Source: Escherichia phage T7. Taken from it: 38,112 nucleotides of DNA. Within the stretch, counting starts at the first letter, position 1, and the number at the start of each line of letters is the position of its first letter. A program made the position numbers and the translations under genes. The stretch lies in sequence record MZ375238.1; one strand, 5' to 3'. The notes beneath the pieces are model-generated. The model had not been told where the DNA came from. It saw only the letters and a program-made list of their open reading frames with translations, and ran no database searches. Below, piece after piece: positions 925 to 1,620 of the stretch.

Positions 925-1620
925 ATGGCTATGTCTAACATGACTTACAACAACGTTTTCGACCACGCTTACGAAATGCTGAAAGAAAACATCCGTTATG
1001 ATGACATCCGTGACACTGATGACCTGCACGATGCTATTCACATGGCTGCCGATAATGCAGTTCCGCACTACTACGCTGACATCTTTAGCGTAATGGCAAG
1101 TGAGGGCATTGACCTTGAGTTCGAAGACTCTGGTCTGATGCCTGGCACCAAGGACGTAATCCGCATCCTGCAAGCGCGTATCTATGAGCAATTAACGATT
1201 GACCTCTGGGAAGACGCAGAAGACTTGCTCAATGAATACTTGGAGGAAGTCGAGGAAGTCGCACGACAGAAAGAAATTGACCGCGCTAAGGCCCGTAAAG
1301 AACGTCACGAGGGGCGCTTAGAGGCACGCAGATTCAAACGTCGCAACCGCAAGGCACGTAAAGCACACAAAGCTAAGCGCGAAAGAATGCTTGCTGCGTG
1401 GCGATGGGCTGAACGTCAAGAACGGCGTAACCATGAGGTAGCTGTAGATGTACTAGGAAGAACCAATAACGCTATGCTCTGGGTCAACATGTTCTCTGGG
1501 GACTTTAAGGCGCTTGAGGAACGAATCGCGCTGCACTGGCGTAATGCTGACCGGATGGCTATCGCTAATGGTCTTACGCTCAACATTGATAAGCAACTTG
1601 ACGCAATGTTAATGGGCTGA
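925..1620 (+). CDS. In-frame fusion: Ocr (gp0.3 anti-restriction DNA mimic, residues 1-111) joined to the C-terminal ~120 residues of gp0.7 (host transcription shut-off region); product of an early-region deletion
   Basis: 231-aa ORF. The N-terminus [19 protein letters not shown]...[11 protein letters not shown] is T7 Ocr; it then continues [19 protein letters not shown]...[12 protein letters not shown], recognised as the gp0.7 C-terminus. The stop lies at the expected distance upstream of gene 1. Confidence 0.85.

Follow-up and report, generated by a model that had tools for sequence, protein, structure and literature searches.

The early region of this genome raises the question of what was lost from it, whether the loss was spontaneous or designed, and what the gene left behind can still do. 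The window, meaning the whole stretch of DNA that was analysed, is a complete phage T7 genome of 38,112 bp with identical 160-bp terminal repeats. When compared with the T7 reference (NC_001604, 39,937 bp) by BLAST and exact walking, it was found to carry three deletions and eight point substitutions. In the same comparison, window 1-1256 equalled reference 1-1256 save for two point differences, and window 1244-6127 was 100% identical to reference 2724-7607. The features of the left end are as follows, in window coordinates.

498, 626 and 750, plus strand: early E. coli promoters A1, A2 and A3, at the same positions in the reference (reference annotation and collinearity of window 1-1256)
925-1620, plus strand: chimeric gene 0.3-0.7 ORF of 231 aa plus stop, 27.3 kDa (ORF list; piecewise identity to T7 gp0.3 and gp0.7)
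925-1243, plus strand: part from gene 0.3 alone, Ocr residues 1-106 and the first base of codon 107 (Pfam PF08684, PDB 1S7Z)
1145, plus strand: A>G (A1145G), giving Ocr D74G (D73G in mature numbering; comparison with other records)
1244-1256, plus strand: deletion junction, the single remaining copy of the 13-bp repeat AGGAAGTCGAGGA (reference copies at 1244-1256 and 2724-2736)
1257-1620, plus strand: part from gene 0.7 alone, gp0.7 residues 240-359 and the stop (100% identity to reference 2737-3100)
1621-1690, plus strand: gene 0.7-gene 1 intergenic region, unchanged (100% identity to reference 3101-3170)
1691-4342, plus strand: gene 1 (T7 RNA polymerase), 1,480 bp nearer the left genome end (ORF list, alignment)

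The early transcript from A1, A2 and A3 encodes the 0.3-0.7 fusion, and E. coli promoter C, annotated at reference 3113, falls at window 1633. Gene 1 starts at 1691 in the window and at 3171 in the reference. A reading made earlier from the letters alone, here called the sequence-only reading, had given both positions, and they proved accurate: the reference early region is 1,480 bp longer between these points.

The pairwise alignment to NC_001604 that the same reading had proposed for locating the breakpoints was carried out base by base. Exactly 1,480 bp are missing, reference 1257-2736 or an equivalent interval shifted within the 13-bp overlap, and these coordinates are those of the published deletion. 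What is missing amounts to one repeat copy and all the sequence between the copies. The 13-mer AGGAAGTCGAGGA is present exactly twice in the reference; it is the sole exact repeat of at least 13 bp in reference 900-3200 and the longest direct repeat of the early region. Its length is only marginally unusual, with 4.8% of dinucleotide shuffles of reference 900-3200 giving a repeat of at least 13 bp. The junction had previously been placed in a short repeat, which is right, and that repeat had been taken for the 9-mer gaggaagtc, which is not, the microhomology being the full 13-mer. The breakpoints are of the H1 type: direct repeats AGGAAGTCGAGG(A) at reference 1244-1256 and 2724-2736 flank a loss of 1,480 bp.

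Both repeat copies lie in codon phase 1 (nt 320 of gene 0.3 and nt 704 of gene 0.7), and they encode EEVEE at gene 0.3 codons 107-111 and KEVEE at gene 0.7 codons 235-239. The fusion is in frame because the two parental genes share the same codon phase at the repeat. Also, the right-hand repeat is a tandem 9-mer and, therefore, two deletion registers are possible, one through the 13-bp repeat and one through an overlapping 10-bp repeat, GAGGAAGTCG.

The ORF that results is in frame over 231 aa and is likewise of the H1 type, with about 110 N-terminal residues from gp0.3 and about 121 C-terminal residues from gp0.7. Fusion residues 1-107 come solely from gp0.3, residues 108-111 (EVEE) are common to gp0.3 and gp0.7 (residue 108 is gp0.7 residue 236), and residues 112-231 are gp0.7 residues 240-359 up to the normal gene 0.7 stop. 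The sequence-only reading had the first 111 residues as Ocr and the remaining 120 or so as the C-terminus of gp0.7, ending at the normal stop of that gene. The alignment bears out both parts, although the substitution D74G, the one departure from gp0.3 through residue 111, had been overlooked. The product had been expected at about 26 kDa, which is too low; the computed mass is 27.3 kDa. The same ORF is annotated at 925-1620 in MZ375235, and the exact fusion protein of the window, with D74G, is on record as QZB83556.1.

A Pfam search of the fusion protein returned the Ocr domain alone, with no kinase family detected. The Ocr match (PF08684) covers fusion residues 3-103 and profile positions 1-101 of 101, with E=2.9e-63 and 211 bits against a cut-off of 25. 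The solved Ocr structure, PDB 1S7Z, is identical to fusion residues 1-111 apart from D74G. F54 and A58 (Met counted), dimer-interface residues that were altered in the F54D/A58E mutant used in PMC7261183, are both present in the translation. The deletion removes the six-residue acidic tail of Ocr (YEEDEE), E. coli promoter B and gene 0.7 up to codon 235. Genes 0.4, 0.5 and 0.6A/B are wholly gone, their reference coding sequences (1278-1433, 1496-1639 and 1636-1972) lying inside the deleted interval. Loss of the Ocr tail, of these genes and of the kinase domain had been claimed before the alignment was available, and the alignment bears it out.

In a study of the T7 kinase, gp0.7 residues 1-242 were assigned to the kinase domain and residues 243-359 to a shut-off (SO) domain that binds DNA (bioRxiv 10.1101/2024.12.20.629319). 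With only gp0.7 residues 236/240-359 left in the fusion, the kinase domain is absent. The shut-off domain (243-359) is complete, including its strongly basic helix, in agreement with the earlier statement that the shut-off region had been left; this stretch belongs to the part with 100% identity to reference 2737-3100. The deposited annotation of the chimera is nonetheless "protein kinase" (QZB83433.1, QZB83474.1, QZB83556.1, UJQ71055.1), and the RefSeq label of a related fusion in Yersinia phage YpP-Y is likewise "serine-threonine kinase". Because the kinase domain is absent, the label carried by QZB83433.1 and QZB83556.1 is misleading. Kinase-dependent functions, namely host-protein phosphorylation and counter-defence against retron and DarTG systems, would be lost with the domain. 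The net charge is -22 for the Ocr part and +16 for fusion residues 112-165. The basic shut-off helix may keep residual DNA binding or may be partially masked by the polyanionic Ocr body. A single-sequence AlphaFold2 model of the fusion was of low confidence (pTM 0.36, pLDDT about 50-67 in the Ocr part); the basic helix, its one confidently modelled element, was drawn as a continuation of the last helix of Ocr.

The 1,480-bp deletion is already known, its coordinates, between-repeat origin, fitness rationale and anti-restriction phenotype all having been published. Heineman and Brown (2012) listed "1257-2736, 0.3-0.7 fusion, 0.4-0.6 deletion" as fixed in lab-adapted T7 (PMC3470554). Isaev et al. 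(2020) found the deletion in several of their T7 stocks, at positions 1256-2735, between 12-bp repeats, AGGAAGTCGAGG, and with an ORF of 231 aa (110 + 121 residues) (PMC7261183). They found it to be the cause of one of their earlier results and equated it with Studier's H1, an identity that rests on their statement (PMC7261183). We are, therefore, highly confident that the window carries the classical deletion of reference 1257-2736 that recurs in the T7 early region, the "0.3-0.7 fusion" attributed in the literature to Studier's H1; no observation speaks against this identity.

Whether the chimera retains activity had been considered unreadable from sequence. For anti-restriction, this had already been answered by experiment with the D74 form of the fusion: EcoKI is overcome and anti-BREX activity is partial. 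EcoKI+ cells were lysed by the fusion phage like by wild type, and BREX restricted the fusion phage about 100-fold and wild type about 10-fold, with complete protection against a gene 0.3 deletion phage (PMC7261183). In mutants that regained full anti-BREX activity, the 0.7 part was cut off by stop codons at its beginning (PMC7261183). Since these stop codons restore anti-BREX activity, Ocr does not need its last seven residues and is hindered by the gp0.7 moiety. In agreement with this, EcoKI restriction is still blocked by Ocr109 and Ocr99, Studier/Rosenberg constructs that are truncated at the C-terminus (PMC3439906). The activity of these tail-less proteins explains how the fusion can keep anti-restriction. 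As published for the same deletion, the protein encoded in the window would be expected still to neutralise the type I enzyme EcoKI and to be a weakened BREX inhibitor, since the gp0.7 moiety interferes.

The D74G substitution is one reason for caution in applying these phenotypes to the present clone. It was absent from every other record compared. Among the central acidic residues, Roberts et al. singled out D73 as the one near the target-recognition domains (TRD) of EcoKI, and D73C made a multi-site Ocr mutant worse (PMC3439906). D74G abolishes the charge at mature residue D73. The Ocr moiety of this clone could be somewhat weaker than that of the published fusion, and the phenotypes published for the D74 fusion are perhaps not exactly transferable because D74G hits a residue reported as important at the EcoKI interface. 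The other point difference in the left 1,256 bp is T162C (T>C at window 162), two bases beyond the 160-bp left terminal repeat and also absent from the other records compared. T162C and A1145G were considered as Cas9 escape mutations. Each has an NGG PAM at a distance of 2-6 nt, but this is no evidence of escape, since roughly one position in two would be expected to qualify by chance. T162C in particular is 2-3 nt from minus-strand NGG PAMs, which is not statistically meaningful.

Since the deletion leaves a long in-frame protein, it could be asked whether the fusion is a selected neomorphic protein, with an Ocr body and a DNA-binding helix that together have a new useful property, or a tolerated by-product of gp0.7 loss. 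Independent in-frame fusions have arisen at three junctions: that of the window, the 10-bp register (a T7 line and phage YpP-Y) and CTTGAGGAA (Yersinia phage R). Also, the gene 0.3/0.7 repeat AGGAAGTCG(A...) was found in 6/6 natural relatives with intact genes (phages N30, Yanou, NC-A, CICC 80001, IME390 and Bas104), at homologous positions, over 9-13 bp and always in the same codon phase. Against selection for a new property, however, the in-frame state is automatic, given that both repeat copies code for one peptide in one phase. Of the five exact words of at least 9 nt that T7 genes 0.3 and 0.7 have in common, four agree in phase. A word of 9-13 nt conserved among genomes that are 85-90% identical is not statistically remarkable, and the conservation of the repeat is probably a by-product of the common EEVE peptide and of this 85-90% DNA identity. 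On BREX+ hosts the fusion does worse than wild-type Ocr, and the escape mutants place stops at the start of 0.7. An IMG/VR scan with exact and degenerate patterns of two of the fusion junctions gave 0 matches, including 0/16 among the ocr-bearing contigs; these 16 contigs were recovered by the positive control, a shared Ocr C-terminal motif. The few carriers found, a small sample, were all T7 laboratory clones or phage isolates hosted by Y. pestis.

A selected neomorph is, thus, a very unlikely explanation. The same low weight is given to the broader idea that the conserved, in-phase repeats are a built-in one-step switch for dropping the kinase and genes 0.4-0.6 without losing anti-restriction, or that selection has given the chimera a function of its own. 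If it were true, the Ocr DNA mimic (-22) and the DNA-binding helix (+16) could, for example, mask each other, which would detoxify the shut-off domain and alter which defence systems Ocr triggers or blocks.

The other question is whether the deletion itself was designed, i.e. whether a CRISPR/recombineering template had been made to remove genes 0.3 to 0.7. The background of the genome invites this view. Window 6128-37792, about 31.6 kb, is identical to MZ375235 (clone T7_20L). Six missense changes in virion genes, at window 18170, 23049, 24607, 31383, 32536 and 33627, comprise gp7.3 R91H, gp11 A153E, gp12 T468A, gp16 G809S and A1193V, and gp17 K214E. They mark the lineage because all are common to T7_20L (MZ375235) and four to OL964750. 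The genome appears to be a clone of the CRISPR/Cas9 iterative genome-reduction (CiPGr) lineage of Yuan et al. (2022, PMC9825161), an attribution that we infer from these matches. CiPGr combines designed 2 x 50-bp homology templates, carried in its cassettes, with Cas9 selection (PMC9825161), and T7_20L shares with the window a gene 1.4 deletion of the designed kind. In that deletion, reference 7608-7763 is missing at the junction window 6127|6128, which is common to 63 "Mutant Escherichia phage T7 clone" records. Because its limits are exactly ATG to stop and it lacks microhomology, the gene 1.4 deletion is taken as designed, with the signature of CRISPR/recombineering.

The early-region junction looks different from this designed deletion in the same genome. 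It does not fall at ORF boundaries and lies inside a natural 13-bp repeat, and a base-identical deletion arose in unrelated, non-engineered T7 stocks (PMC7261183, PMC3470554). A different deletion in the lineage also bears on the point. In the sibling T7_30L (MZ375237), early genes were lost by a different event, a 563-bp deletion at about reference 1353-1903 with an overlap of up to 12 bp (BLAST), which took part of gene 0.4 and genes 0.5 and 0.6 and left genes 0.3 and 0.7 intact. Because this allele differs, several early-region deletion alleles coexisted in the CiPGr population. Cas9 may have selected the 1,480-bp deletion, which was not of designed origin. The third deletion of the window, of 189 bp (reference 39429-39617), is flanked by 9-bp direct repeats, ATAGAGTCA, at window 37784-37792. 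It shortens gene 19.5 to a 15-aa ORF (MFRLLLNLLRHRVKS*), extends to within about 160 bp of the right terminal repeat and was not seen in any record examined. For the early-region deletion, a designed origin is very unlikely indeed. The idea that an assembler collapsed the sequence between the repeats of a genuinely intact early region can practically be dismissed: although collapse at repeats is a known assembler failure mode, 13 bp is far below read length or typical k-mers, the junction is present in one piece in nine independently deposited T7 records (MZ375235/6, OL964748-50 and PV223880-83, which stem from three or more submissions), 53 contigs (NCBI and Logan assemblies) encode the fusion protein with D74, and two papers confirmed the deletion by phenotype and sequencing (PMC7261183, PMC3470554).

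We conclude that the 1,480-bp deletion was spontaneous, because the junction lies within a natural repeat and not at ORF limits, unlike the designed gene 1.4 deletion. Spontaneous deletion between short direct repeats had been suggested by the sequence-only reading, and it agrees with the published reports of the identical deletion (PMC7261183, PMC3470554). According to Isaev et al., the deletion forms spontaneously at 37 degrees in rich medium, and polymerase slippage is the probable route (PMC7261183). Slippage in replication or single-strand annealing between the repeats would each give this deletion, and sequence cannot separate the two. Its fixation could be explained by gp0.7 being deleterious to T7 on laboratory hosts in rich medium; Heineman et al. 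(2009) stated that gp0.7 is deleterious in rich media and that, for this reason, changes in or deletions of gene 0.7 are common on serial transfer (PMC2680503). In this lineage, the deletion would also rid the genome, in one event, of the Cas9 target sites that lie in genes 0.4 to 0.7. Because the genome comes from a lineage reduced with Cas9, counter-selection by Cas9 may have helped to fix the deletion. Cas9 pressure on genes 0.4-0.7 may, thus, have been added to the usual growth advantage, the two forces being inseparable by sequence.

There is a practical side to this. The deletion is carried unnoticed by many T7 stocks that pass as "wild-type" and by engineered derivatives. It shifts the behaviour of T7 towards BREX (PMC7261183) and, given the loss of the kinase domain, would probably do so towards kinase-sensitive defence systems as well.

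Several known systems can be set beside the window. Yersinia phage R (JX000007), like YpP-Y a divergent T7-like phage of Yersinia pestis, has an in-frame Ocr-gp0.7 chimera at a short direct repeat, as in the window; its gene R_01, at 326-748 of the compared sequence, is annotated "0.3-0.7 fusion; inhibits type I restriction". The phage R junction differs, being at CTTGAGGAA (gp0.7 codon 325), and the protein has 140 aa in total. Most of the shut-off domain is gone from it because only about 33 C-terminal gp0.7 residues remain. Yersinia phage YpP-Y (NC_047939) encodes a 228-aa 0.3-0.7 fusion in the 10-bp register, GAGGAAGTCG, at 2276-2962 of the compared sequence, in a genome divergent from T7 (about 84% DNA identity at the locus). 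In T7 itself, a 1,489-bp sister deletion through the overlapping 10-bp repeat has been reported (PMC8923235, Table 2). The 1,489-bp deletion and the YpP-Y fusion join the same two genes at the same hotspot and in frame, as in the window, but their register is offset by 9 bp and, thus, they have three residues (EVE) fewer. Ocr109 and Ocr99 are like the fusion in being without the acidic C-terminal tail; they are plain truncations, whereas the 120-residue basic extension is found only in the fusion. Finally, the published T7 0.3-0.7 fusion (PMC3470554, PMC7261183) agrees with the window in its breakpoints, its flanking repeat, its 231-aa ORF and its loss of 0.4-0.6 and the kinase domain, and the window differs from it by the extra D74G and by the further deletions in genes 1.4 and 19.5.
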